Origin: an uncultured Bacteroidales bacterium
GTDB lineage: Bacteria > Bacteroidota > Bacteroidia > Bacteroidales > S143-33
Direction of reading: 5' to 3'
Length of the DNA: 48,226 nt
Assembly (NCBI GenBank): GCA_964637235.1
Contig: CAZWVR010000005.1
Coordinates: forward strand, 1 to 48,226
This document shows, one piece after another, positions 15,598-28,923 of this stretch. Each line of letters opens with the position of its first letter. The stretch's first letter is position 1. The notes below the pieces were generated by a model. It saw only the letters and a list, made by a program, of their open reading frames with translations, was not told where the DNA came from and did no database searches. The position numbers and the translations under genes were made by a program.

Positions 15598-16364
15598 CCA
15601 TATCCAAACAAGAGATAAAATTTGTCAATAGTTTAAAAATAAAAAAGTATCGGTATAGGCATAAAAAGTTTGTATGTGAGGGTAAAAAAAATTTTGAGGC
15701 TTTATTAAAGTCTGGTTATCAAATTGATAATGTGTATCTTACAAAGTCCGCATATGAAAATTTTGGTAATAAGATAAATGATTTACCGTATAAAATTGTT
15801 TCTGAGGAAGTTTTTTCAAAAATATCGTCGTTAAAAAATCCGCAAGGGGTTTTGGCGATAGTTAATATGCCGCAGCAAGAATTTGATATTTCAGTAATTG
15901 TAAAAGAGCTTACAATTTTTTTGGATAAGATACAAGATCCGGGGAATATGGGGACAATATTGCGCTTAGCATATTGGTTCGGGGTAAAAACTGTTTTATG
16001 TTCTGTGGATACTGTGGATATATATAATCCTAAAACGATACAAGCTTCTATGGGAGCTATTTTCCAGACGCAAGTTTTTTATGTAAATGCGAAGGAAGTA
16101 TTATCCGAACTAAAAACACAAATACCTATATACGGCACTTTTGCAGATGGTGAAAATATATACAGAGGGAAGTTTAACATACCAGCTGTTGTTGTTTTTG
16201 GTAATGAAGGGAATGGTATTTCGCCAGAGTTGTATCAATTTTTTGATAAAAAAATATCGGTTCCGAGTTTATCTCAGGGAGATTTAACAGATTCGTTGAA
16301 TGTAGGAGTAGCCGCAGGGATTATACTTTCAAAGTTGTTAGAAAGTAAGTTAAAATTTTTATAG
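15594..16364 (+). CDS. TrmH/SpoU family RNA 2'-O-methyltransferase
   Basis: Motifs IQDPGNMGTILR, FGNEGNGI and SLNVGVAAGI. ATGA overlap with the upstream gene. Confidence 0.92.
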   Translation: MTISKQEIKFVNSLKIKKYRYRHKKFVCEGKKNFEALLKSGYQIDNVYLTKSAYENFGNKINDLPYKIVSEEVFSKISSLKNPQGVLAIVNMPQQEFDISVIVKELTIFLDKIQDPGNMGTILRLAYWFGVKTVLCSVDTVDIYNPKTIQASMGAIFQTQVFYVNAKEVLSELKTQIPIYGTFADGENIYRGKFNIPAVVVFGNEGNGISPELYQFFDKKISVPSLSQGDLTDSLNVGVAAGIILSKLLESKLKFL

Positions 16365-16366
16365 AT

Positions 16367-16430
16367 AGCAAAGGGACTGCGTTATTCGCCTTTATCAGTT
16401 AAAGTAGGCGTTATGCAGTCCCTTTTTGCT
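16367..16430. terminator. Long bidirectional terminator hairpin between trmH and the Mbs-like operon
   Basis: AAAGGGACTGC (16370-16380) pairs with GCAGTCCCTTT (16415-16425), with an inner CGCCT/AGGCG pair and a following T tract. Confidence 0.75.
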
Positions 16431-16434
16431 TTTT

Positions 16435-18300
16435 TTATTCTTTATTTAGCAGTAATTTTTCAATACCTTTTACAGCTCTAAAACCGTCTGCAATAGCACT
16501 TATAGCATCAGCGGTTCTATTGACTGCGTCACCACCGGCGAATATTTTAGGATCTCCGGTTTGTCTGAATTCATTAGTTTTAATTCTACCTCTTTCAATT
16601 TGGATTTTTTCCTTAAATTTATCTGGGATAAATGAGTAATCAGCACCTTGACCGATTGCGGCAATGACAGCAGTTACTTCGATTTCAGTTTCAGAGCCTT
16701 CGATAGGCACAGGACGTGGGCGACCGCCTTTTGGATCAGGAACCATTTCTGCTTTTAGGTACACGAGTTTTTTAACGTGTCCGTTTTCATCACCGATGAT
16801 TTTTACGGGGATACCTTGTGGTATAATTTTTACGCCTTCGGCTTCTGCACCTTCTATTTCTTCCCAATCAGCGGGCATATCTTTTACTCTACGGCGGTAT
16901 AGAATAGTAACATCAGCGCCGAGACGTCTGGCAACGCGAGCTGCGTCAATAGCTACATTTCCTCCACCGATTACAACTACTTTATCGCCTATTTCTACAA
17001 TTTTGTTTGGTTCTTTTATTTTAATAACATTACCTTTTTCATCTCTTACGAAATTGCCATTTTCGTCTTTGAGGAATACGTTATTTACTTCTCGCAAGAA
17101 GTTTATTGCTTGCATAGCTCCTTCAAGGTCTTCTCCTTCAATTCCGAGTTTCCAACCTACTTGAAAACCTACACCTATAAATACAGCGTCGAAGTTGTTG
17201 TATATTTCTTCAAAAGAGATGTCTTTACCTACTCTTGTATTGTATTTTATTTTGACGCCGACTTTTTCCATATATTCAATTTGCTTATACAAGCTATCTA
17301 CTGGGAAACGATATTTAGGTATTCCCCAGGTTATCATTCCACCGGCTTTATTAGTTGCTTCAAAAACAGTGACGTCAAAACCTTTAAGTTTGAGATAATA
17401 AGCAGCGGTAAGTCCAGCCGGACCTGCACCTATAATACCGACTTTAAAGCCATTATCTGGTTTAATTTCAGGATTTATGATTTCGTAAAGTATATCAGCA
17501 GTTTCGGCACGTTCAATAGCGTATCTTTTTAGCCATCTGATAGCGAGAGGTTCTCCGCGTTTCGTGACAGCGCATACTTCTTCACATCTACGTGTACATA
17601 CTTTACCACACATTTCGGGCAGCGGGTTATTATCGTATATAATTCTGATAGCATCTTCGTCGTTTCCTGCGGCGATAGCATTTATATATTCCGGTATATG
17701 CATATGTTCAGGGCAAGCTTCTGTACAAAGTCCACAACCGAGACATCTGCGAGCTTCTTCGCGTGCCTGTTCTTCTGTATATCCTAAAACAACTTCTGCG
17801 AATGATTTTACTCGTTCTTCACCTTCTAATTCAGGCATTGGCACTCTATGGAGCTCTGTAAGAGTAGTTTGCGGGGTACTTATAAATGATGCTCTTTGAT
17901 AGCCATCAGGATTACTAACGCCGGGTGTCCAGAGGAAATCCTCAGGATTTTCGCTAACAAAGATATAGTCTTTTGTCAGACGTAATGAACCAGTAGGGCA
18001 TACTTCTACGCATAGTGCACACCAACAACATCTTCCGTTATCTACTCTTGGTCTTAGACCTGAGTCTCCTTTTTTCGGTTCAATGCCTTCAACAGGCACC
18101 ATATCAATAGCCTTGTTCATACATATTGTGGAACAATTCCCACAGCCAATACATAGTTCCAGATCATTATAGTGTAGTCCTCTGTATCTATCGGAGGCTT
18201 CAACTTCAATTTGCGGGACTAATAGAGTATGGGGCTTTTTGCCCAATTGTGATAATGTTGTTAAAGGTTGAACCGTACCTTTTATATTGAAAAATCCCAT
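16435..18300 (-). CDS. MbsN/NuoI-like 2[4Fe-4S] subunit fused to a GltD-like FAD/NAD(P)H oxidoreductase
   Basis: N-terminus has [17 protein letters not shown] and [12 protein letters not shown]. Then CLGC..CTEACP and CGKVC...CEEVC (GltD/DPD Fe-S domain), GAGPAG (FAD), [11 protein letters not shown]...YRR (NADPH-type site) and FAGGD. Confidence 0.9.
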
Positions 18301-18317
18301 AATTTCATTTTTTTAAA

Positions 18318-19421
18318 TTAACGTTCTATTTCGGGTGGGCATGTACCCAGACTATTCATAATAACCGAAACATCGGCAATATTTTGCCCGACAAGTAAAT
18401 TTTCCAAGAGAGTTATTGCGTGTACGTAAGCAGGACCTTTAACGTGTACTCGTCTTGGATGTGTAGAACCATCGCTTACTACGTAATAAGCAAATTCACC
18501 TCTTGCAGATTCAGTTTTTACGAAGGCTTCTCCTGGAGGAAGTGCCCATTTATGCGGATTAGGTATTTTATTGTAATATTCGCCAGAAGGCATTTGTTCT
18601 AAGACTTGCCTAACAATATTTATTGATTGTCTGATTTCGAATCTTCTTATAAGAGCTCTTGTCCATACATCTCCGCCTTTAAAGGCTGGCACTTCAAATT
18701 TTAGCTTATCATAAACTTCGTAGGGTTCATCTATTCTGACATCACTTCTTATTCCACAAGCACGTAGAGGAGGTCCTACAACGCCCCATTCAATAGCTTT
18801 TTCAGGGTCAATAACGCCGATGCCTTGTGTTCTTTTTTGGAATATTGCATTGTCAAACATTAATCTGTCGTAATCGTCAAGTCTTTTTTCCAAGTAATCC
18901 ATTACTCTGAAAGCTTTATCTTTAAATCCTTTTGGAAGGTCTCGTCTTACGCCACCTGGCCATATATACATATGATAGACACGTCCACCTGTAAGATCTT
19001 CAAATAGGTCAAGGATATAATTTCTATCGCCGATAGACCATTGACCCATAGTATATAGTCCAGTAGATGCTGCTTGTCCACCATACCAGAGGAGATAAGC
19101 TTGTATTCGTGAGAGTTCCAGTACTAATACACGAATATATTTAGCGCGTTCAGGGACTTCTCTTCCTTCAATTTCCTCCACTGCTCTGGCATAGTTTTCT
19201 TCATTTGGATCTGGTTCAGGAACGCAGATACGGCATACTATTGTGAAGCTTTGTAGCCAGTTGCGGCGTTCCATTAGTTTTTCAAAACCTCTATGTAGAT
19301 ACCCCACGTGAGTAGTGGCTTTAACAACAGTATCGCCTTCTACTTCAAGGCGTACCATCATATTACCGGTGATACCGGGGTGTTGGGGTCCTAAGTATAT
19401 TGTAGTTGCTTTTTTTCTCAT
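18318..19421 (-). CDS. MbsL/MbxL (NuoD-like) subunit, without a complete [NiFe] ligand set
   Basis: Motifs GPQHP, GYLHRGFEK, RICVPEPD, GGVRRDL, ESARGE and C-terminal CPPEIER. Confidence 0.9.
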   Translation of the reverse strand: MRKKATTIYLGPQHPGITGNMMVRLEVEGDTVVKATTHVGYLHRGFEKLMERRNWLQSFTIVCRICVPEPDPNEENYARAVEEIEGREVPERAKYIRVLVLELSRIQAYLLWYGGQAASTGLYTMGQWSIGDRNYILDLFEDLTGGRVYHMYIWPGGVRRDLPKGFKDKAFRVMDYLEKRLDDYDRLMFDNAIFQKRTQGIGVIDPEKAIEWGVVGPPLRACGIRSDVRIDEPYEVYDKLKFEVPAFKGGDVWTRALIRRFEIRQSINIVRQVLEQMPSGEYYNKIPNPHKWALPPGEAFVKTESARGEFAYYVVSDGSTHPRRVHVKGPAYVHAITLLENLLVGQNIADVSVIMNSLGTCPPEIER

Positions 19422-19984
19422 CGTGTATATTTCTTTGCAAATTCTGGTATTTCTTCACCTGTACGATTAGCAATAGTCTCACGGACATCTTGTGCGTCCT
19501 CTCTACCAGGACGAGTGAAGTATGTCCGTTTGACATAAGAGAGAGTATCAAAATCTTTACGCATTGGAGGTATGTCTTTCCAGTCTTCAAGTATAAATTC
19601 TCTTTCACCTACAAGACCATCAAATTCAATTCCGAACATTTCTCTTATTTCACGTTCATATGTATTTGCTTGTCTCCAAATATAGTCAATATTAGGAGCG
19701 ACAGGGTTATCTCTGTTGATATAGATTTTGTTAAGGATATTTATTTTATCTTTCGGCGACCAAGTGATATATACAAGTTCAAATTTATTGTCTTCTATCC
19801 AATCTACGCAAGAGATATGTGCCAGATGGATATATCCGAGTTTTTCTTTTTCATAAAGTAGTAATTGTTCAATTGTATCTTTATTTGTTTTTGCTATTAC
19901 TCTTTTATTTCGTTGGATTTTTAGCTCTACTTTGTCGCCGAATTTTTGTTTTATTTGCTCTATTAGAATGTTTTCTTTTTCCAT
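19418..19984 (-). CDS. MbsK/MbxK (NuoC-like) subunit
   Basis: Motifs YEREIREMFGIEF and PPMRKDF. Confidence 0.9.
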   Translation of the reverse strand: MEKENILIEQIKQKFGDKVELKIQRNKRVIAKTNKDTIEQLLLYEKEKLGYIHLAHISCVDWIEDNKFELVYITWSPKDKINILNKIYINRDNPVAPNIDYIWRQANTYEREIREMFGIEFDGLVGEREFILEDWKDIPPMRKDFDTLSYVKRTYFTRPGREDAQDVRETIANRTGEEIPEFAKKYTR

Positions 19985-19995
19985 AATTAGATTTT

Positions 19996-20541
19996 TTACC
20001 AGTTATAATCGGGCATTACCCAGTTATGAATAATTTTCTTTTGATTTTGCCTGTAGAATTCAAAGTTTTCTTTATAACGTTTCCATCCGTCAGCTCTACC
20101 TTCTTGAATAAGTTTTTGGAGTTTTACGAAGCCGGCTATAACAGCTTCTGGTCTTGGCATACAGCCGTTAATATATACATCTACAGGCAGGTACATATCT
20201 AAGCGATTTATTGTATTGTAGGAGTCCCAATACATACCGCCATTGATAGTGCAGGAACCAAACCCCATAACATATTTTGGATCTTGCATCTGTTCATAAA
20301 CTCTTATAACACGTTTGAGAGTTTTTGTAGCCAGATACCCGGTAATTAATAAAACATCGGCTTGTCTTGGAGTAGCGGCACCTCTGATACCGAAACGTTC
20401 GGCATCGTAGCGAGATGTCATTGTAGGGGGAATTTCTATTGCTCCACACCCTGTCCCGTATGCTAAAACAAATAGAGAGTTTTTACGGGCAAAGTTTTTA
20501 ATTATTTCAATTATGCTTTGTGAATATTTATCGTTAATCAT
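19996..20541 (-). CDS. MbsJ/MbxJ (NuoB-like) [4Fe-4S] subunit
   Basis: Motifs TGCGAIE, RYDAERFG, PRQAD, GSCTINGG and PVDVYINGCMPRPEA. Confidence 0.92.
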   Translation of the reverse strand: MINDKYSQSIIEIIKNFARKNSLFVLAYGTGCGAIEIPPTMTSRYDAERFGIRGAATPRQADVLLITGYLATKTLKRVIRVYEQMQDPKYVMGFGSCTINGGMYWDSYNTINRLDMYLPVDVYINGCMPRPEAVIAGFVKLQKLIQEGRADGWKRYKENFEFYRQNQKKIIHNWVMPDYNW

Positions 20542-20552
20542 TTTTCAAGATT

Positions 20553-21461
20553 TTAGAATATTGTTGCTTGAATTAAACCGATTAAGCCGAAAAATAGAGG
20601 CCAACCCCAGAAATATCTTACTGCCTGTTCAGTTCTAAATCTTGGAGAAACTATGCTCCAGAGAACGGGGTACATATAAACAGCAAAAGTTTTTAGTATG
20701 AGCGTTCCTAAGTTTGTAGCACCTGCCATAAAAAGATCTACAAATAGAGTGAGTTTAACAAAGGCGAATATAGAGCCACTTGTCATCATCAAACCGAGAT
20801 ATTTCCCTCCAAATTCAGAGATTGGTCCGGAAGCCAATTCAGCAGGGGCTCCAACAATATCAAAAGGCGAATATCTAAACATCCCTGGCAGTGTCATCAA
20901 AGCAGCTAAGAAAGCAAATGGAGAACTAAATAAAAACCATGTATGTTGTTGTTGCTGAATAGCTACTAAATCAGAGACTGATGTAGTTTTATATTGAATC
21001 ATTAAACTGATTAGAGCTATCACCCAAGGTATTTCAAATCCAACCATTTGGGTTAGCCCTCTGCTAACACCGATAGTAGAGTTAGGGTTTCCCGTTTGAC
21101 CAGCACCCAATGCCATACCCAAAGGTCCAAATACCATAAGGTAAAGTAATAAGACCAAGTCGCCATTAAAAGTCAAATTTGTAAAGAAGTGACTACCATA
21201 TACTATCGGAATAAACAATAGTGTAGTAATGGACATGGCAATTAACCATAGAGGTGCCAGATGTTGCATTATTCCATGATTGATGTTTGAAGTCTTTGCC
21301 CAAAGTTTAGTAACATCAATAAAGTTCTGATATATAGGAGGACCTACACGATTTTGTGCTCTTGCTATAATTTTTCTACGAATTCCGGCATAAGTCATTC
21401 CCACAATAAAGGCTATTAATGCCGATACAGTTGCACTTAATATTAATTTCCAGATTTCCAT
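20553..21461 (-). CDS. MbsM/MbxM (NuoH-like) membrane anchor subunit
   Basis: Motifs RKIIARAQNRVGPP, PFDI...ELASGPISEFGG and PRFR; multi-TM. Confidence 0.92.
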   Translation of the reverse strand: MEIWKLILSATVSALIAFIVGMTYAGIRRKIIARAQNRVGPPIYQNFIDVTKLWAKTSNINHGIMQHLAPLWLIAMSITTLLFIPIVYGSHFFTNLTFNGDLVLLLYLMVFGPLGMALGAGQTGNPNSTIGVSRGLTQMVGFEIPWVIALISLMIQYKTTSVSDLVAIQQQQHTWFLFSSPFAFLAALMTLPGMFRYSPFDIVGAPAELASGPISEFGGKYLGLMMTSGSIFAFVKLTLFVDLFMAGATNLGTLILKTFAVYMYPVLWSIVSPRFRTEQAVRYFWGWPLFFGLIGLIQATIF

Positions 21462-21473
21462 TGTTCTTTATTT

Positions 21474-23309
21474 TTATAGGAAAAGATTTTTTAGCAGAAA
21501 CAAAATAGTTAAAAATATAACCACATAAGTGGCATAAGTTTGAGTATTACCGTTGTATATACGGCGTAAGAATTGGAAAAAGTCTTCCAGTCCAGTAGCT
21601 ATTTCATTGTAAAATTTAGATATTTTGTATTTTAATATTGGTCCTAATGCTCTTTGAAATGGACGATAAAAATCTACGGAATAGTGATAATTATCATCAG
21701 GACGAACAGGCTCACCTGCATTAGCAATATCTTTTGTAGTAACGTAGCGTGTATTTTTCCGTCCGTAAAAAGTGATTATAATCAAAAATAGAATGAATAC
21801 AGAAGCTAATGTAATAATAGTTGTTTTTAACCATATACTATTGTGCCACTCGTTTGTCAATACAGAAATTTTATAAGTAATATCAGTGAAGCCCAAATCA
21901 CCCATAGCATTTGCTATTGGTTTAAAAATCAGTCCAGGGAATGTACCTAATACTATTAGCGTAATAGCAATCAAAAGCATTGGGACTACCATTAATGGGT
22001 GAGCTTCTTTTACGTTTTCAAATTCTTTTTCTTCTTGACCTAAGAATATCCCAAATAGAAATCTAAAACTGTAAAGAAAGGCAGCTGTTGAAGATAAGAA
22101 AATTAGGATTACTAAATATACATGTCCTGATGTTATTAAAGATTCATAAAGCATCCATTTACCTACAAAGCCAGCTAATGGAGGCACTCCTGCCAGTGCA
22201 ATTATAGATATCAACGCGGCAAAGAAGGTATATGGCATTTTACGAATTAAACCTCTGAGTTCATTGAAATCAGTTGTTCCAGTTTGTTTTTCCACTGCAC
22301 CGGCTACCATAAAAAGATTTGCTTTGAACAGACCATGCATAAGTGCTAAAAATATTCCTGCAAAAATACTTAATTTAGTACCTATACCTAAACCTGTAAT
22401 AATATAACCGAGCTGTCCAATAGATGAATATGCAAGCAGTTTTCGGATATCATCTTGGAATATAGCATAGAATGTTGCTAAAACAGCAGTTATAGCACCG
22501 AACCAAGCTAATATAACACTACCAGTATGCAAACCTGAGTGGTTAAACATATTTATTGCTACAAATCCAATACCGTAGATACCCATCTTTGAGAGAGCCC
22601 CTGAAAATACATCTGTATATGCCATAGGAGCATTTGAATATGCATCAGGAGCCCATACATGCAGTGGCATCATAGCACTTTTTACTGCAAAGCCGGTTAG
22701 GAGCAATAATCCAATCAATAGTTGCATTCCGAGAGATAGGTTCGGAAATGCAGTGAAAAATTGTTCTATGTATAGAGTGCCTGTAAGTTTATTTATTAGT
22801 ACAATTCCCATAAACATAGAATATGCTCCTAATGCGCTGAATATCATATATTTCAATCCTGCTTGGTCAACATTCCTACCATTGTATATAACTAATAGAT
22901 ATGAAGACCATGTCATTATTTCCCAAAAGAAAAATAATGAGACAAAGTCTTTACTTACTAAAATTCCCAGCATTGCCCCAATAGAAAGCAGAAAATTAAA
23001 GAAAAACCAAGCTTGTCTATATTTGCTTTCCTTTTTCATATAAGGGATAGCATATAACAAAGCCAAAGACGCTAAAACAACAATTAAAATAGCAAAAATC
23101 CATGAATAGTCAGTAAATTCCCAACCTAAGGATAAATGTATTAATGAAAAATTAAATTCAGAGAATCTTACAGTGAAAAAATAAATGGGCAATGCTAACG
23201 CTTCTATCAATACAATTATTTGTCCCAATAATTTATTTAATACAAATGCGATATATGTAATTACGGCTCCTGCAAAAAGCATTAAAAGTAGTAAAACAAT
23301 AGTGTTCAT
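21474..23309 (-). CDS. MbsH'/MrpA-D-like ion-translocating subunit with C-terminal lateral-helix region
   Basis: Motifs FFWE, PLHVWAPDAY, SKMG, LLAYSSIGQLG and GVPPLAGFVGKW; extended C-terminus with GNTQTY plus a TM. Confidence 0.88.
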   Translation of the reverse strand: MNTIVLLLLMLFAGAVITYIAFVLNKLLGQIIVLIEALALPIYFFTVRFSEFNFSLIHLSLGWEFTDYSWIFAILIVVLASLALLYAIPYMKKESKYRQAWFFFNFLLSIGAMLGILVSKDFVSLFFFWEIMTWSSYLLVIYNGRNVDQAGLKYMIFSALGAYSMFMGIVLINKLTGTLYIEQFFTAFPNLSLGMQLLIGLLLLTGFAVKSAMMPLHVWAPDAYSNAPMAYTDVFSGALSKMGIYGIGFVAINMFNHSGLHTGSVILAWFGAITAVLATFYAIFQDDIRKLLAYSSIGQLGYIITGLGIGTKLSIFAGIFLALMHGLFKANLFMVAGAVEKQTGTTDFNELRGLIRKMPYTFFAALISIIALAGVPPLAGFVGKWMLYESLITSGHVYLVILIFLSSTAAFLYSFRFLFGIFLGQEEKEFENVKEAHPLMVVPMLLIAITLIVLGTFPGLIFKPIANAMGDLGFTDITYKISVLTNEWHNSIWLKTTIITLASVFILFLIIITFYGRKNTRYVTTKDIANAGEPVRPDDNYHYSVDFYRPFQRALGPILKYKISKFYNEIATGLEDFFQFLRRIYNGNTQTYATYVVIFLTILFLLKNLFL

Positions 23310-23321
23310 TTGAATCTTTTT

Positions 23322-24806
23322 TTAATTTAAACCTAAGTTTGGCAAAACGCTGTGAATATAATTTTGCTTATCTATTAAGGCATCAGTAGCCTGTTGAATA
23401 TATGAAGTGATTAAATCAGGATAAAGACCTACAACTATAATTGTCAATCCTAAGATAAGCATAGCAGCCATAGCATTCCAGCGGGGTTTTTGTACTTGAT
23501 ATTTTCCGGTATATTCTCTAAAATATAATCTGTGAATCACTCTGAAGTAATAAACTATTTCCACAATGCTGACAGAGAGTATCAAAGCTAATAGAACTAC
23601 CATACCTTTATTAGCAGTAGCCATTAACAGATATAATTTACCCCAGAAGCCAGAGAAAGGAGGCAATCCTACAATAGCGAAAGCTCCCAGAGAAAATAAC
23701 AAAGCAGTTAATGGCATTTGTTTGCCCATACCCTCTAAATCGCTGATATATTTTACTTTTGAGTTATATACCAAGAAACTGGCAGAAAGGAATAATAGAG
23801 ATTTAATGACAGCATGATTAAATAAAACAAATAAACCTGCAAAAATTCCCAATTGAGTATTTAATCCGAAAGCAATCATAATTAAGCCAATCTGCCCTAT
23901 ACTAGAATATGCTAACATTCTTTTAATTTTTTCTTGTCTAAGCGCTATTGTTTCAGCAAAAACCAGTGTTATGACGCCCATAATTAGCAAAGTCTTATAG
24001 GCAGAAGATATATCAAAGAGGGTATAAATCATTCTAATTAGGGCGTATAGACCAGCCTTTGAAGTCATAGCTGCAAATACAGAACCAATAGGTCCGGGAG
24101 CTTGTGAGTAAGCATCGGGAGCCCAGCCATTTAATGGGAACATTTCGGCTTCGATGCCAAAGCCTACAAATAATAATATGAAAATCAGAACTTTTAGTTT
24201 CGGAGGTATTTTGTCAATATTTGCAGCAATATCAGCCATGTTTAAAGTTCCTAAATGACCATAAATCAATGCAATTCCCAGAAGAATAAACACAGAGGAG
24301 AAACTCCCGACAATAAGATATTTAAATGCAGCTTCGGCACCATCTCTTCCGCGATAAAAAGCTGTTAGAGAATAAGCACTGATTGAAGTTATTTCCAAAA
24401 ATACGAACTGGTTGAAAATATCACCAGTAATTACTACGCCGATACTTCCTGCTACAATTAGCATTAGTAATACAAAGTATTTAACGGCATTGTCAAATTC
24501 TACCTTTTTGAATAAATAGCTATATGCCCATACCAAAAATGCCAGAAGTGATATTACAGTAGCAATAAATCCACTGAAAGGCGTAAACATCAGATTGATA
24601 CCCAAAGGAGGTGCCCAACCTGCTATCTCTGTAATAATGGGTTTATCTACGCTGGTTTGCATGAGTAAAACTACTGCATTGACCGCCAAGTATGCGAATA
24701 ATAAACCGGGAATTATTCTAATTAAACTTTTGTGTATTTTGCCAAATAATGGCAACAAAAAAGCGGTCAATAACGGCAATGCTATAAAATAAATTGGACT
24801 TACCAT
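23322..24806 (-). CDS. MbsH/MrpD-like ion-translocating subunit
   Basis: Motifs GWAPPLGI, TGDIFN..VFLE, EAAFKY, WAPDAY, KRMLAYSS and GLPPFSGFWGK. Confidence 0.9.
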   Translation of the reverse strand: MVSPIYFIALPLLTAFLLPLFGKIHKSLIRIIPGLLFAYLAVNAVVLLMQTSVDKPIITEIAGWAPPLGINLMFTPFSGFIATVISLLAFLVWAYSYLFKKVEFDNAVKYFVLLMLIVAGSIGVVITGDIFNQFVFLEITSISAYSLTAFYRGRDGAEAAFKYLIVGSFSSVFILLGIALIYGHLGTLNMADIAANIDKIPPKLKVLIFILLFVGFGIEAEMFPLNGWAPDAYSQAPGPIGSVFAAMTSKAGLYALIRMIYTLFDISSAYKTLLIMGVITLVFAETIALRQEKIKRMLAYSSIGQIGLIMIAFGLNTQLGIFAGLFVLFNHAVIKSLLFLSASFLVYNSKVKYISDLEGMGKQMPLTALLFSLGAFAIVGLPPFSGFWGKLYLLMATANKGMVVLLALILSVSIVEIVYYFRVIHRLYFREYTGKYQVQKPRWNAMAAMLILGLTIIVVGLYPDLITSYIQQATDALIDKQNYIHSVLPNLGLN

Positions 24807-25192
24807 TTTAGATTTTTTATTTCGTCAATATTTGTTGTATTATGATGTCTGTATAGACGCACAATAAGAGCTAATCCTACGGCTGTTACACCAAAACCGA
24901 TGACAATAGCCGTAAGAACGAGAGCCTGAGGAACGGGATCTACCATCTGTACACTTATACCTTTGTGGATTTTCTCCATAATTGATGGAGAAAAAATGGG
25001 TGCTGTACCGTTATTTATGTATCCTATCGAAATCAATAATAGATTTACACCAGAATCTACAATGGAGAATGAAAGCATAATTTTTATTAAATTCTTTTTA
25101 GTAAGCACCCCATAAAAACCTATCATTATTAACAGAAGCGAAGTACCATAAAAAGTATAAGTAAGTATCTGATTTATAGTTAATTCACTCAT
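24800..25192 (-). CDS. MbsG/MrpC (MnhC) subunit
   Basis: Motifs KNLIK and DPVPQALVLTAIVIG. Confidence 0.93.
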   Translation of the reverse strand: MSELTINQILTYTFYGTSLLLIMIGFYGVLTKKNLIKIMLSFSIVDSGVNLLLISIGYINNGTAPIFSPSIMEKIHKGISVQMVDPVPQALVLTAIVIGFGVTAVGLALIVRLYRHHNTTNIDEIKNLKW

Positions 25193-25925
25193 TATTATTA
25201 TTTTTAGAATTGGTATTTACATCGACAGAAATGGACAAAAGAGTATCCAATATACCAGTAAGTTCTGCTGCAACTTTAAATCCGACTGCAATGTATATCA
25301 ATGGGATAATACCACCGCTGAGTAAATCATTAAGTTTCCCGGTAAGCATAAAGTTTTCAAGAAAGTCTTTACCAAGTATCAAACCCATTATACCTAATCC
25401 TGCAAAAGTAGCTCCTGCTAATGATTCAATCCAAGTGATAGTATTATGTTTTACAGCAAATTTTCTATATGCTATTAAAAGGAATAGGTATCCTGTAGCA
25501 ATAATTACACCACCTTGAAAACCTCCACCGGGTGTTAAGTGTCCGTGAATGAATACATAGCCTCCTAATAAAATCATCAGAGGGAATAGAGCTTTACCTG
25601 CAACCTGAACTATCCTACTTGCCTGAACAGAACGACGTCTTGGGTTAAGTTCTGTGTGAATTTCTCTACGACGAAATAATATACTTGCTAATCCTGTTGA
25701 AGCTAAGAATAGTACAGTTACTTCTCCTAAGGTATCAAAACCTCTATAATTTACTACTACTGCCGTCACTACATTAGCTACTTGTAAATCTTTGGGAGTT
25801 TTTTCTATATAAGCTTTTGCTACGTTCATTCTATTTTTTCCAAATTGCACACTTAAAAATCCTCCTATTAGAATGAAAAAGATATAAGCAAGTAGGATAA
25901 ATATTATAACCCCTTTTAGTTTCAT
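25185..25925 (-). CDS. MbsE/MrpB (MnhB) subunit
   Basis: Motifs NVVTAVVVNYRGFDTLGE and GHLTPGGGFQGG. Confidence 0.93.
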   Translation of the reverse strand: MKLKGVIIFILLAYIFFILIGGFLSVQFGKNRMNVAKAYIEKTPKDLQVANVVTAVVVNYRGFDTLGEVTVLFLASTGLASILFRRREIHTELNPRRRSVQASRIVQVAGKALFPLMILLGGYVFIHGHLTPGGGFQGGVIIATGYLFLLIAYRKFAVKHNTITWIESLAGATFAGLGIMGLILGKDFLENFMLTGKLNDLLSGGIIPLIYIAVGFKVAAELTGILDTLLSISVDVNTNSKNNNNE

Positions 25926-25940
25926 TTGATAAAATTTTTA

Positions 25941-26192
25941 TTATTCTTCTTCTCGTTTAGTGTTTTTGATAGTAACTACAAAAATAATAGTAGTCAGAGC
26001 TACACCTATTGCAGCTTCGGTTAAAGCAACATCTGGTGCCTGTAAAACGAAATAGAAAGCCGACAGTATTAGACTAATGATAGAACTTGCAATAGTTGCT
26101 ACCAGTAAGTCTTTATGGCTCACTACATAAATGGAGACGATTATTAAAATCAAGGCACCAATTATAATTAGAGCGGTCAATAACGTTGTCAT
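25941..26192 (-). CDS. MbsD (DUF4040, MnhB-related) small subunit
   Basis: Motif QAPDVALTEAAIG; 3 TM. Confidence 0.9.
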   Translation of the reverse strand: MTTLLTALIIIGALILIIVSIYVVSHKDLLVATIASSIISLILSAFYFVLQAPDVALTEAAIGVALTTIIFVVTIKNTKREEE

Positions 26193-26533
26193 TGTTTATT
26201 ATTTTTAGGATTATCAACTTCTTCGTATGCATCGGTTATTTTTACTTTTGGTTTAATACCAGCCCGATGCGAACCTCTTGCAATAGCGTGGGAGCTTATT
26301 GGATTAGAGAGTGCTATAAACAGAATTATGATAAAAAGCTTAAAGAACCAATCTGGTTGCAAAAGAGCTACTCCAAATATTAAACTCATAGCACCCATAG
26401 TAGAAGCTTTGGTGCCTGCTTGTAAACGGGAGTATATATCAGGCATTCTTAGTATTCCCAAAGCTCCTAAAAAGAGAAATATTGCTCCCAATACAATGAA
26501 AAATGAACCTAAGTATGTAAGTATTGTATTCAT
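26189..26533 (-). CDS. MbsC/MrpG (MnhG) subunit
   Basis: Motifs GILRMPDIYSRLQAGTK and PISSHAIAR. Confidence 0.93.
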   Translation of the reverse strand: MNTILTYLGSFFIVLGAIFLFLGALGILRMPDIYSRLQAGTKASTMGAMSLIFGVALLQPDWFFKLFIIILFIALSNPISSHAIARGSHRAGIKPKVKITDAYEEVDNPKNNKQ

Positions 26534-26534
26534 A

Positions 26535-26807
26535 TTAAACCCCTCCTTCTAAATATCTTGCAATTACAACTATCCCTAAGAAGCCTAAGGCTGCATATAT
26601 CAGAGATACATCAACATAGATGAAACGTTGGAAAATATATCCGAATAGGATAAGCCCACCGATGATAGTAACAGACATTGTATCGGTAGCGACAACTCTA
26701 TCGGAGGCTTCTGGCCCTTTCATAAATCTTATAAATGCCAGAATGATCCCAATTCCTATTAGTACCAGTGCTGTATAAACAGAGTATTGAACTACAATGT
26801 TTTCCAT
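26535..26807 (-). CDS. MbsB/MrpF (MnhF) subunit
   Basis: Motifs GPEASDRVVATD and ARYL. Confidence 0.92.
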   Translation of the reverse strand: MENIVVQYSVYTALVLIGIGIILAFIRFMKGPEASDRVVATDTMSVTIIGGLILFGYIFQRFIYVDVSLIYAALGFLGIVVIARYLEGGV

Positions 26808-26817
26808 AGTATATTTT

Positions 26818-27360
26818 TTATTGATAGATTTTCAATAGTATTTTTTCAAAAGGATAAGCTATTTCTTTGTAAACTTCTTCAGGATCTGTTGCTTCTACTG
26901 TAAGCCAGTGAATGTAAAATCTATTTTCTACAATATCCACGGTAAATGTTCCGGGAGTTAGAGTGATACTATTTGCCAGAATCATTTTTGCAAAATCAGA
27001 GTTTAATTTGCTTTCAAATTCCACTATACCGGGATTGATAGGTAGTTTGGGATTTATAACTATCATTGCTACGTGAAAATTAGCTTTTATCAATGCCCAT
27101 AAGAATACGAAAATATATTCAACGATATATAACAATCTTTTGGGTGAAAGATTAGCTAAGCCGAGAGATGTGAAAGTTTTATATCCATATATTGCAATAA
27201 TAAAGCTTACTACTACTCCCATAACTACCTCTTGCAAGGCAAAAGTAGAAGTAAAGGCGAGCCATATTAAAAAGATAAATAAAAAAGTGAACAAGAATTT
27301 ACTAATAAGACTCGCATTTGTTTTTGCCTCTGCTTGTGATACTGTGTTTTTTTCTGTCAT
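26818..27360 (-). CDS. MbsA/MrpE (MnhE) subunit
   Basis: Motifs KANFHVA, INPGIV, ANSITLTPGT and YIHWL. Confidence 0.93.
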   Translation of the reverse strand: MTEKNTVSQAEAKTNASLISKFLFTFLFIFLIWLAFTSTFALQEVVMGVVVSFIIAIYGYKTFTSLGLANLSPKRLLYIVEYIFVFLWALIKANFHVAMIVINPKLPINPGIVEFESKLNSDFAKMILANSITLTPGTFTVDIVENRFYIHWLTVEATDPEEVYKEIAYPFEKILLKIYQ

Positions 27361-27362
27361 AG

Positions 27363-27641
27363 TTAACGCTTTATGTTGAAAGAATTAAATTCTTTATATT
27401 GTATATCAGAGACTTCGACGTTAGAGATGTCTGCCAATTCTGGTCCTTTATTACAGTAATAGACAAGTTTTTCAAGTTTGTTTGGTTCTCCATATGCTTC
27501 AACATATACAGATCCATCTGGCATATTTTTAACATATCCTGTGATTCCTAATCTATTAGCTCGTTCCCATATATAATAGCGAAATCCAATTCCTTGTACT
27601 TTTGGACCTGTAATATGAATTTTAATGCCTTTTTTAGTCAT
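27363..27641 (-). CDS. acyP: Acylphosphatase
   Basis: Motifs VQGIGFR, GYVKNMPDGSV and GPELA. Its stop is 2 nt before the mrpE-like start. Confidence 0.92.
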   Translation of the reverse strand: MTKKGIKIHITGPKVQGIGFRYYIWERANRLGITGYVKNMPDGSVYVEAYGEPNKLEKLVYYCNKGPELADISNVEVSDIQYKEFNSFNIKR

Positions 27642-27880
27642 CTAAAATTTTTTACGCTGGACAAAATTTTTAAAAAATGAGAAAAAAAAAAATCTTGTTG
27701 AACATAAAATACGTTATTGCAAGATATATTAAAAATTTTTTTGGGTAAAAATTTGAAGATCAGTCGCTTATTAAGCAGTGTAAATCTCTATATTTATAGC
27801 TGATTAAAAAATAATATATAAGGAAAGTATTATTAGATTAAAATTGAGTAGATTTGAGACTAAGATTATGAGTATATAAA

Positions 27881-27932
27881 ACAGGGCTGTCCGCAAAGAT
27901 TACCTTTTTTTGTATATTTGGGACAACCCTGT
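27881..27932. terminator. Inverted repeat, probable terminator of the 28621 gene or a REP/IS-end-derived hairpin
   Basis: ACAGGGCTGTCCGCAAA ... TTTGGGACAACCCTGT. Confidence 0.6.
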
Positions 27933-27940
27933 GATTTTTT

Positions 27941-28621
27941 TCAAGGTTTCTTTTTATCGTATAGTTTATTTAATTTAATTTCAATACCTATGGAGCCAAA
28001 AGTTACTGGTATTATCCCTTCTTCTATAAAGAGAGCTGGTCCTGATTGTAAAGTTAAAAAAGCATATTTATAACCTAATTTAGTTATAAATGTTGGGAAA
28101 ATCATAAACATAATGTCATCTAGATTTGTGGATTTAATAATATAAAAACGTGGGGAGAAGCCAAATTCTGTGTATTTAGAAAATGTTCCTATTTCTGGTT
28201 GAATAAATAAAAAGTTACTATGAAAATCATTATTTGCTGCATGATAATTATTCCAAGCCCTTCCTATACCTGAATAAATTTCGAAAGTAGTATTTTTATT
28301 TAATTTATTGTAATATCCAACTCCAAATTCAATTTGGGCGATTTTAAGTGAATCTTCTTCATCGAGGTAAATCTCTGAAGCTGTAGAATTAATATGATAG
28401 TAATTTGCTATTAGAGCAAATTTATTTGAAATAGCATAGCTACTTGAAAAATATGGACCTATATCTGGGAGCATATTTACTCCAGCATTGAAATGTAGTT
28501 CATTTTTATTAGTCATTAAAGGGGCGTTCATACTACTGACCGCTAATGGTAGGTCGCAAGAGCTTAAAAATAAAAAAAGTGTAGCTATAAATACTGAAAT
28601 AGGAATAAATAAGTTTCTCAT
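27941..28621 (-). CDS. Hypothetical lipoprotein / outer-membrane beta-rich protein
   Basis: Lipobox LSSC; amphipathic strands such as EFGVGYY, FEIYSGIG, FIQPEIG and EFGFSPR. Confidence 0.7.
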   Translation of the reverse strand: MRNLFIPISVFIATLFLFLSSCDLPLAVSSMNAPLMTNKNELHFNAGVNMLPDIGPYFSSSYAISNKFALIANYYHINSTASEIYLDEEDSLKIAQIEFGVGYYNKLNKNTTFEIYSGIGRAWNNYHAANNDFHSNFLFIQPEIGTFSKYTEFGFSPRFYIIKSTNLDDIMFMIFPTFITKLGYKYAFLTLQSGPALFIEEGIIPVTFGSIGIEIKLNKLYDKKKP

Positions 28622-28889
28622 AGTCTTTTTTTAGAATAAAGAACGTTTTTTTTTATATAAAGAGTTCTTTTTTTTTGATAAAATTTAATTTTTTTATGAT
28701 AAAATTACTCATTTTGATTATTAACAAAAGATTTTAATACTAAATTAAAGTAGGATGTGGATATTTAGGGGGAAGCTCACTATGGAGTAAGCTACTATGC
28801 AAATGAAAGATCATCATATACATTTCTGTTATGATAGGTGATTGTATAAGTTAAACCTTGTTATTTTTTGGTGAAAGAGTAAATGGTGG

Positions 28890-28923
28890 AGGGCTGGTTA
28901 TTATGAGAGAATTTACCAGCCCT
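28890..28923 (-). terminator. Hairpin downstream of the OmpA-family gene
   Basis: AGGGCTGGT pairs with ACCAGCCCT, a 9-bp stem starting 10 nt after the stop codon. Confidence 0.55.

Follow-up and report, generated by a model that had tools for sequence, protein, structure and literature searches.

The MBS complex of Pyrococcus furiosus (formerly MBX; structure 6U8Y) is a structural link among Mrp antiporters, membrane hydrogenases and complex I. To our knowledge it is the only known instance of sulfur reduction by a bare iron-sulfur cluster, and only the archaeal, ferredoxin-dependent enzyme has been studied. We report here on a 13-gene operon of this type in an uncultured Bacteroidales bacterium. 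It lies on the minus strand, from 27360 down to 16435, of a stretch of 48,226 nucleotides (positions 1 to 48,226 of contig CAZWVR010000005.1, assembly GCA_964637235.1), which is called the window below. The last gene of the operon joins an MbsN-like subunit to an NfnB-type flavoprotein. The product may be an MBS-type reductase that translocates ions, is connected to the NADP(H) pool and probably reduces sulfane sulfur; we put this forward tentatively, as a reading that falls a little short of an even chance.

The proximal cluster of MbsJ has only C28, C93 and C123 as ligands, on a loop three residues shorter than that of MBH; C25 is too distant for coordination, and the free iron is the proposed catalytic site (PMC7684303). 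MbsL retains two vestigial NiFe cysteines, C85 and C385, which are dispensable, and the Nqo4 quinone ligands H38 and Y87 are gone. Fifteen charged or protonatable residues have been named as the pump axis of MBS (PMC7684303, section 7). In the 'Mbx-like' operons of Thermotogales, such as T. maritima mbx, a GltD/NfnB-type flavoprotein replaces the plain NuoI/MbsN, as it does in the window; the Thermotoga form ends with a rubrerythrin gene, which is not seen in the window (PMC4758237). For the fused form, roles as a ferredoxin:NAD(P)+ oxidoreductase and as a sulfur reductase have both been proposed in print.

The window operon shares with P. furiosus MBS its 13 subunit types and its gene order, A, B, C, D, E, G, H, H', M, J, K, L, N. 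The 13 open reading frames are co-oriented and tightly packed, with spacing from an 8-nt overlap to a 17-nt gap, as follows:

26818..27360, minus strand: subunit A, MrpE-like, 180 amino acids (aa); Pfam PF01899 MNHE, 141 bits
26535..26807, minus strand: subunit B, MrpF-like, 90 aa; Pfam PF04066 (MrpF_PhaF), 65 bits
26189..26533, minus strand: subunit C, MrpG-like, 114 aa; PF03334 (PhaG_MnhG), 91 bits, and NF009314, 115 bits, above cut-off
25941..26192, minus strand: subunit D, MbhD (former DUF4040), 83 aa; PF13244 MbhD, 70 bits
25185..25925, minus strand: subunit E, MbhE and MnhB domains, 246 aa; PF20501 and PF04039
24800..25192, minus strand: subunit G, MrpC/NuoK-like, 130 aa; PF00420 (Oxidored_q2), 101 bits
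23322..24806, minus strand: subunit H, antiporter-like, 494 aa; PF00361 (Proton_antipo_M)
21474..23309, minus strand: subunit H', antiporter-like, 611 aa; Proton_antipo_N and M
20553..21461, minus strand: subunit M, NuoH-like membrane anchor, 302 aa; NADHdh
19996..20541, minus strand: subunit J, NuoB-like, 181 aa, with a three-Cys proximal [4Fe-4S] site; Oxidored_q6
19418..19984, minus strand: subunit K, NuoC-like, 188 aa; PF00329 (Complex1_30kDa), 88 bits
18318..19421, minus strand: subunit L, NuoD-like, 367 aa; Complex1_49kDa
16435..18300, minus strand: subunit N, 621 aa, N-terminal MbsN/NuoI-like and C-terminal NfnB/GltD-type parts in one open reading frame
17926..18300, minus strand: N-terminal part of N (aa 1-125), sites for two [4Fe-4S]; best solved match 6u8y_N
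16435..17850, minus strand: C-terminal part of N (aa ~151-621), sites for two [4Fe-4S], FAD and an NADP(H)-type Rossmann domain; Fer4_20 and Pyr_redox_2

The first 12 Pfam assignments (A to L) are all above the curated cut-offs, and NCBIfam is concordant. An initial annotation, made from the letters alone, had described 13 packed, co-oriented genes in this order as the MBS/MBX subunit set; the open reading frame list, Pfam and NCBIfam reproduce the coordinates, the count and the order exactly and confirm the set. A one-genome-per-species scan with L gave 278 relatives, and the best 80 of the 278 (73-86% identity) were examined. The genes present are collinear in 80 of 80 loci; all 13 are found in 45 of the 80, the others being cut at contig ends. 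The arrangement is not due to chance.

Subunits L, J, M, H, H' and N (N-terminal part) were searched against solved structures, and bit scores against the solved chains are the basis for placing the operon. For all six the best solved match was P. furiosus MBS. L scored 375 bits with 6u8y_L, against 264 with Nqo4, 153 with MbhL and 129 with HycE. The corresponding values were 237.5 bits with 6u8y_J for J, against 132.5 with NDH-K and 111 with MbhJ; 158 with 6u8y_M for M, against 80 with MbhM and 67 with HycD; and 388 with 6u8y_H for H, against 211 with MbhH and 179 with MrpD. H' matched 6u8y_X over its full length (residues 2-604) with 300 bits, against 205 with MbhH, 149 with MrpA and 130 with Nqo12. 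Residues 11-120 of N gave 77 bits with MbsN (6u8y_N), 47 and 46 with subunit I of complex I (8e9g_I and Nqo9, 2fug_9, respectively) and 35 with MbhN. By these sequence comparisons the operon is assigned to the MBS/MBX family, as a bacterial member. The initial annotation had named clustering with Nuo, Ehr or group 4 hydrogenases as the contrary outcome; in the bit scores the MBS chains are the closest.

Complex I has homologous J, K, L, M and antiporter-like subunits and a lateral-helix subunit, and by that comparison the fused flavoprotein of the window would act as an NAD(P)H-oxidising N-module. The operon could then encode an NAD(P)H:menaquinone oxidoreductase, in effect a complex I into which electrons enter by a different, NfnB-type module. 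The host genome, a metagenome-assembled genome (MAG) of 2.67 Mb in 254 contigs and 86.9% complete, encodes Rnf, Nqr, cytochrome bd and a UbiA-family prenyltransferase, and L and M were the sole NuoD- and NuoH-like genes found in it; all of these but Rnf speak for a quinone-linked enzyme. However, Nqr already connects NADH to quinone. Pfam on all 13 products of the operon gave no NuoA, NuoJ or NuoE/F/G, and the window has a distal Mrp module (A, B, C, E). J lacks the tandem Cys of complex I and has the MBS-type single Cys, Thr and Val stand at the positions of Nqo4 H38 and Y87 in 81 of 81 L sequences, and every searched subunit scores far higher against MBS than against complex I. An identity as complex I is rejected on these grounds, and the menaquinone reading is very improbable.

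A group 4 [NiFe] hydrogenase is likewise rejected, since the four-Cys NiFe site of L is incomplete, with Glu at the fourth position. This residue is E364, which we take to be the place of the fourth NiFe Cys from the CxxC spacing. A search of the genome, which is 86.9% complete, gave no HypD (PF01924) and no match to NiFeSe_Hases. Nor was an [FeFe] hydrogenase found in it. The initial annotation had called the complex neither complex I nor a hydrogenase, and both exclusions hold.

It had also called the last gene NuoI-like, which is right for the first ~125 residues; the remainder is an NfnB/GltD-type flavoprotein, and the fusion had been overlooked. N resembles NuoI/MbsN over residues ~9-125 only, and residues ~150-621 consist of Fer4_20 and Pyr_redox_2 domains of the GltD/NfnB type. 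NF010590 spans the whole of N end to end, with a score below the model's cut-off. Among solved chains the C-terminal part is closest to the large subunit of P. furiosus NfnI (5jca_L, 305 bits), followed by T. maritima NfnB (4ylf_B, 298 bits) and GltD (193). An AlphaFold2 model of N built from a 58-sequence alignment has a pLDDT of 87.3 and a pTM of 0.82, and its residues 146-619 superpose on NfnI-L (VIA-align) with Z 46.7 and a root-mean-square deviation of 1.9 Å over 447 residues at 41% identity; GltD gives Z 40-42 and dihydropyrimidine dehydrogenase (DPD) Z 38 (model residues 160-621).

All 17 of the 17 Cys of N are invariant in 66 of 66 sequences, and 16 of them fit four cluster motifs of the CxxCxxCxxxC type: eight in the dicluster domain and eight in the NfnB-type part, together the ligands for four [4Fe-4S]. 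The nucleotide domain carries GGGN and YRRR, which are likewise invariant among the relatives, and YRR is presumably a sign of NADP(H) preference. Of the 72 loci with both parts of N, 71 have them in a single open frame. NfnB (5JCA/4YLF) and GltD share with N the two [4Fe-4S] ligand sets and the FAD and NADP(H)-type motifs. NfnB pairs with NfnA, whereas the window module is covalently joined to a complex-I-type dicluster subunit; Pfam on the operon products detected no NfnA (PyrK-like) partner. In the flavoprotein part of the window protein there is a 24-residue insertion at ~aa 407-430 (window ~17011-17082, minus strand), modelled with pLDDT 52-56 and missing from more than 90% of relatives.

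MbsN of P. furiosus is a stand-alone protein of 208 aa, whereas the 621-aa N of the window carries a 470-aa NfnB-type module. The fusion of N to an NADP(H) flavoprotein of the NfnB/GltD type sets the complex apart from the ferredoxin-only MBS of Thermococcales, of which it is no copy; it belongs to the 'Mbx-like' variant of bacteria. As to the family, the initial annotation is right; its functional proposal has to be changed to fit this NADP(H)-linked variant. The hosts differ as well, MBS being from a hyperthermophilic archaeon and the window operon from a Bacteroidota MAG with a G+C content (GC) of 29-39%.

At the proposed catalytic site the likeness to MBS in sequence is close. J C32, C97 and C127 correspond to MbsJ C28, C93 and C123, the loop aligns without a gap and is thus of the same length, and there is no fourth Cys; MbsJ C25 is replaced by Gly29. 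These four residues of J are invariant in 75 of 75 sequences. In L, C66 and C361 correspond to the two vestigial cysteines C85 and C385 of MbsL, and T18 and V67 occupy the positions of Nqo4 H38 and Y87, so the quinone ligands are gone in both enzymes; all four are invariant in 81 of 81 sequences. L differs from MbsL in a third Cys, C63, three residues before C66, which is Leu in MbsL and is invariant in the same 81 of 81. L (18318-19421, minus strand) in this way holds three of the four hydrogenase NiFe Cys positions (C63, C66, C361), where P. furiosus MbsL holds two.

J and L are the most conserved subunits, with median identities across relatives of 81% and 77%, the L value being biased upward since the loci were selected by L; the membrane subunits range from 52 to 64%. 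Polysulfide reduction is suggested by the conserved three-Cys cluster.

The pump axis is largely retained, with 11 of the 15 MBS residues kept. H keeps the equivalents of MbsH E138, E219, K250 and K393 (4 of 5), with Val at H330; H' keeps those of MbsH' E128, K217, K248 and K399 (4 of 5), with Leu at H336; and M keeps those of MbsM D196, E203 and E211 (3 of 5), E104 and E193 not being kept. Ten of the kept residues are invariant among relatives, and the other, M D201, is replaced by Glu in 1 of 71. The alignment of H' covers the whole of MbsH', which bears the lateral helix HL and transmembrane helices 15-16.

For the NADP(H)-linked sulfane reductase proposed above, the architecture would comprise a complete Mrp-type arm for ion translocation, made of A, B, C, D, E, G, H and H', and a peripheral arm resembling that of complex I, made of M, J, K, L and N. 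A hydride from NAD(P)H would enter at the FAD of N, and single electrons would run through the four N clusters to the three-Cys cluster of J, whose free iron would reduce a hydrophobic sulfane-sulfur compound (polysulfide or an organic trisulfide) in the chamber formed by L, J and M. This reduction would power H+ pumping by H and H' as well as an exchange of Na+ and H+ in the distal Mrp module. The chemistry would stay at the J cluster as in MBS, and the NfnB-type arm would wire the NADP(H) pool into the same chain. Ferredoxin may also donate electrons, or be reduced, at the N clusters, so that the ferredoxin, NADP(H) and sulfur pools would be joined.

Reduced ferredoxin and NADPH would both be available in the host, because the genome encodes four 2-oxoacid:ferredoxin oxidoreductase-type genes and a separate NfnAB pair (on contig C9). 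The ATP synthase c subunit, encoded by one gene, lacks a Gln...Glu-Ser/Thr sequence, which we take to be the Na+ motif, and does not support a Na+ cycle. In T. maritima, mbxA rises 4.4-fold after S0 addition (PMC9431562), which by analogy favours a link to sulfur. As far as sequence goes, the electrons may run either way: NAD(P)H may be the donor, or NADP+ may serve as a second acceptor for electrons from ferredoxin.

The fused, strictly conserved NADP(H)-type module and the genome's capacity to make reduced ferredoxin are also what would be expected of an energy-conserving ferredoxin:NAD(P)+ oxidoreductase, an Rnf analogue. Electrons would then pass from ferredoxin through the N clusters and FAD to NADP+, a drop of ~100-150 mV would drive ion export, and there would be no sulfur substrate. 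This role has been stated for the GltD-carrying 'mbx-like' operon of Thermotoga (PMC4758237) and for the Mbx of Mesotoga (bioRxiv 10.1101/322537). However, coupling of the complex I type is triggered at the chamber by the proximal cluster (PMC7684303), and a path from ferredoxin to FAD bypasses J, L and M; with the coupling site at that place, a pure ferredoxin:NADP+ pump is hard to reconcile. J and L are nevertheless the best conserved subunits, with an invariant three-Cys cluster. The same role was once proposed for P. furiosus Mbx and was later superseded by direct sulfane reduction. Rnf and a separate NfnAB are, besides, already present in the genome. We consider the Rnf-like role unlikely, though quite conceivable.

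The relatives point to a further possible component. A gene for a 'dihydroorotate dehydrogenase-like protein' (DHOD-like; ~332 aa, NF005741 above cut-off, PRK07565 family) adjoins the operon, co-oriented, in 39 of the 80 loci, upstream of A in 25 loci of the Bacteroidales type and downstream of N in 14 of the Melioribacteraceae type; examples are L021:122-1114, L044:1016-2014 and L068:5391-6377. Where at least 1.1 kb is available on both flanks it is present in 20 of 23 loci, and it follows N in both examined loci (L111, L112) of a paralogous operon type, which is described below. It was not found in the window, nor within 19.9 kb of the operon in the same-family genome G449, nor beside the fused-N gene of L104, where 3.4 kb of downstream sequence is present. 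The window's own genome has two unlinked copies, at C71:10643-11635 (L101:6638-7636) and C25:18608-19570 (L102:6600-7583). The C71 copy falls within the operon-linked clade (support 100/99) on a long branch (1.52), and the C25 copy is an outgroup. We found no paper on the PRK07565 family or its substrate. The computed consensus of the DHOD-like protein lacks 'SCPN', the motif that holds the catalytic Cys in class 1 DHODs.

The complex between the fused N of L021 and the DHOD-like protein encoded next to it was predicted from alignments made for the purpose, with ipSAE values of 0.11, 0.67 and 0.64 in three runs (median 0.64; best control 0.00). In calibration the mark used is reached by 58 of 80 solved complexes and by 2 of 110 mismatched pairs. 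The runs share at least 27% of contacts, and the pLDDT of the partner is at least 79. The predicted contacts join the nucleotide-binding domain of N (GGGN and the YRRR Arg) to an almost invariant acidic/aromatic loop on the DHOD-like protein, which is kept in the C71 copy and not in the C25 copy. The prediction supports binding of the DHOD-like protein to the fused N.

Together N and the DHOD-like protein hold all five domain types of DPD (pig; E. coli PreT/PreA): dicluster, Fer4_20, FAD, NADPH and the FMN TIM barrel. Compared with DPD the domains are permuted and split, and the predicted contact is on the NADPH domain, unlike the arrangement in DPD. Memory of the DPD structure is an unlikely source of the positive prediction, because the predicted arrangement differs from it. 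Docking of the FMN protein in the manner of DPD is not supported, DPD aligning only to residues 160-621 of the N model and the predicted interface lying on the NADPH domain.

On the strength of this partner the complex could be a flavin-based multi-branch enzyme, in which the DHOD-like FMN protein (that of C71 in this host) would dock on the FAD/NADPH domain of N, an organic substrate would react at FMN, and electrons might be bifurcated or confurcated between the FMN branch and the Fe-S chain to J. The near-constant linkage of the gene in both operon types, the predicted complex and the position and interface loop of the C71 copy all agree with it, and NfnB-type flavins are bifurcation sites in solved Nfn complexes. 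Weighing the other way, the gene is unlinked in the window and in G449 and is not next to the fused N in L104; one of the three runs reached only 0.11, and a modelled partner can be drawn to an empty cofactor cleft such as that for the nucleotide; the literature gave no substrate for the family, and the C71 copy has a long branch. We think such an enzyme doubtful.

A bolder proposal, and in our judgement an improbable one, is a new respiratory class in Bacteroidota and Ignavibacteria. An MBS-type pump would carry a three-cofactor input hub, made of the NfnB-type FAD, the four [4Fe-4S] and a docked DHOD-like FMN subunit whose acidic loop would sit in the nucleotide pocket. The partner at the flavin end would be a small organic substrate or a bifurcating pair and not free NAD(P)H, this would be coupled to sulfane reduction and ion translocation, and in this organism the FMN subunit would be the one on C71. 

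Under the reading we prefer, an NADP(H)-linked sulfane reductase, the DHOD-like protein is in most relatives probably a component of the complex, as the C71 protein probably is here, and it would be a third possible redox terminus.

Several points weigh against this preferred reading. The span from NAD(P)H to polysulfide is ~50-60 mV at standard potentials, so that a pump containing two antiporter-like subunits would have little energy to draw on; this small driving force speaks against a pure NAD(P)H:polysulfide pump. Docking of the DHOD-like protein as predicted covers the nucleotide pocket of N and, if real, questions NAD(P)H as the substrate. C63, C66 or C361 of L could provide a fourth ligand to the J cluster, which would then have no free iron. 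On the charged axis, four of the 15 residues are unlike MBS (MbsH H330, MbsH' H336, MbsM E104 and MbsM E193), and the family placement is by bit scores against solved chains. A Psr/Phs-like molybdopterin oxidoreductase (C21:20706-23000; L115:814-3108), whose best model is the thiosulfate reductase PhsA at 492 bits, below the cut-off of 694, is encoded in the genome as well, together with its Fe-S subunit (L115:284-817); sulfur reduction need not rely on the MBS-type complex. No activity, expression or structure data were found for the operon or for any fused-N homologue, and what is in print on the fused form mostly has electrons running the other way, from ferredoxin to NAD(P)+ (PMC4758237; bioRxiv 10.1101/322537).

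The best 80 L relatives are almost all MAGs, assigned to Bacteroidales, Bacteroidetes/Bacteroidota, Lentimicrobiaceae, Prolixibacteraceae, Rikenellaceae, Melioribacteraceae and Ignavibacteriales. Some close records carry odd labels, namely 'Chlorobiota bacterium', 'Leptospira biflexa' and 'Neomarinimicrobiota' (L014, L016, L017, L026, L084; L057, L085; and L081, respectively); amid Bacteroidales and Melioribacteraceae sequences, these may reflect mislabelled bins or transfer.

An order-level sample of 120 other genomes, one per family, has 17 with an MbsJ-type gene, the J being 78-84% identical in 6 (including the single same-family genome) and 58-67% identical in 11; two loci of this latter group belong to the paralogous operon type described below. 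The operon is not rare in Bacteroidota MAGs. A phylum-wide survey with the whole of N matched 291 of 401 genomes, and besides G000 only G029 and G265 matched from the N-terminus, the others being ordinary GltD/NfnB genes; only 7 genomes of the window's order are in that sample, so that the frequency there is understated. Among 1.84 billion representatives of 50%-identity clusters, ~13 of the 150 best N matches extend into the MbsN part, and the rest are NfnB-like domains of other proteins.

Named members of the fused form include Thermosipho melanesiensis, a Spirochaetaceae MAG and Candidatus Hydrothermae/WOR-3. The T. melanesiensis protein (ABR31076.1, 616 aa) is 47% identical to residues 10-617 of the window N, and non-Bacteroidota fused forms range from 41 to 50%. 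Such records are annotated as 'FAD-dependent oxidoreductase' or similar, and NCBI has only that name for the fused subunit. The initial annotation had pointed to related operons in Thermotogae, and the Thermosipho homologue and the Thermotoga form (PMC4758237) bear this out. It knew of no characterisation in Bacteroidota. Among the papers that the literature searches listed, none was found that discusses this complex in Bacteroidota or Ignavibacteria, and the paper on M. roseus respiration makes no mention of Mrp, antiporter or glutamate synthase, but the operon itself is, as noted, fairly widespread. The fused variant of the Thermotoga type is thus already in print and biochemically unstudied, and it is common in uncultured Bacteroidota.

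Two other operon types were seen. The paralogous 13-gene type has the same order, a fused N and the DHOD-like gene directly after N; its J is 62-65% and its L 49-52% identical to those of the window (L111, G503:C1:2863000-2882900; L112, G424:C21:51000-70900), and both types occur together in G424 and G447. On the metagenome contigs L109 and L110 there is a 13-gene MBS-type operon with a plain, unfused MbsN and an L 52% identical to that of the window; no GltD-like part was found within the available downstream sequence.

Around the operon in the window are the following:

27363..27641, minus strand: acylphosphatase gene, 92 aa; PF00708, 83.5 bits, with NCBIfam acylphosphatase models matching below their cut-offs
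16367..16430, minus strand: terminator-like hairpin between the N stop and a convergent SpoU methylase gene; minimum free energy -27.2 kcal/mol
27941-28621, minus strand: open reading frame of 226 aa upstream of the operon; no Pfam or NCBIfam match

The acylphosphatase gene is co-oriented with the operon, its stop lies 2 nt before gene A, and on its upstream side there is an AT-rich gap of 299 nt. The hairpin that follows the N stop has z = -6.36, with 0 of 200 shuffles folding equally well. Because the acylphosphatase gene abuts A and the hairpin follows the N stop, the transcription unit may hold 14 genes, with acylphosphatase as the first. This gene occupies the slot held by the DHOD-like gene in most Bacteroidales relatives; the layout is matched only in L030 and L031, with a 40%-identical gene. 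Over 16000-28900, a scan for sigma-70 promoters and simple terminators gave 40 sites of the former kind (56.6 expected) and 5 of the latter (6.6 expected). GC is 38-39% within 16001-20000 (the N, L, K and J genes), 33-36% in the membrane-subunit genes and 29-33% in the flanks.

DNA of the window is present in a run labelled hydrothermal vent metagenome. Three DNA runs in two studies contain it, one of them possibly its source, and no RNA run is listed among the sequencing runs that do.

The fused form is the only complex-I-like enzyme detected in this genome, and it recurs in many uncultured Bacteroidales and Ignavibacteria of vents and sediments. The near-constant DHOD-like neighbour is a testable lead toward a function beyond those proposed earlier, and the unfused operons of L109 and L110 are a natural comparator for the fusion of N. 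If sulfane reduction by NAD(P)H or ferredoxin with ion pumping is indeed what the complex carries out, abundant heterotrophs of sediments would have in it a way of conserving energy and producing sulfide that has so far gone unrecognised.

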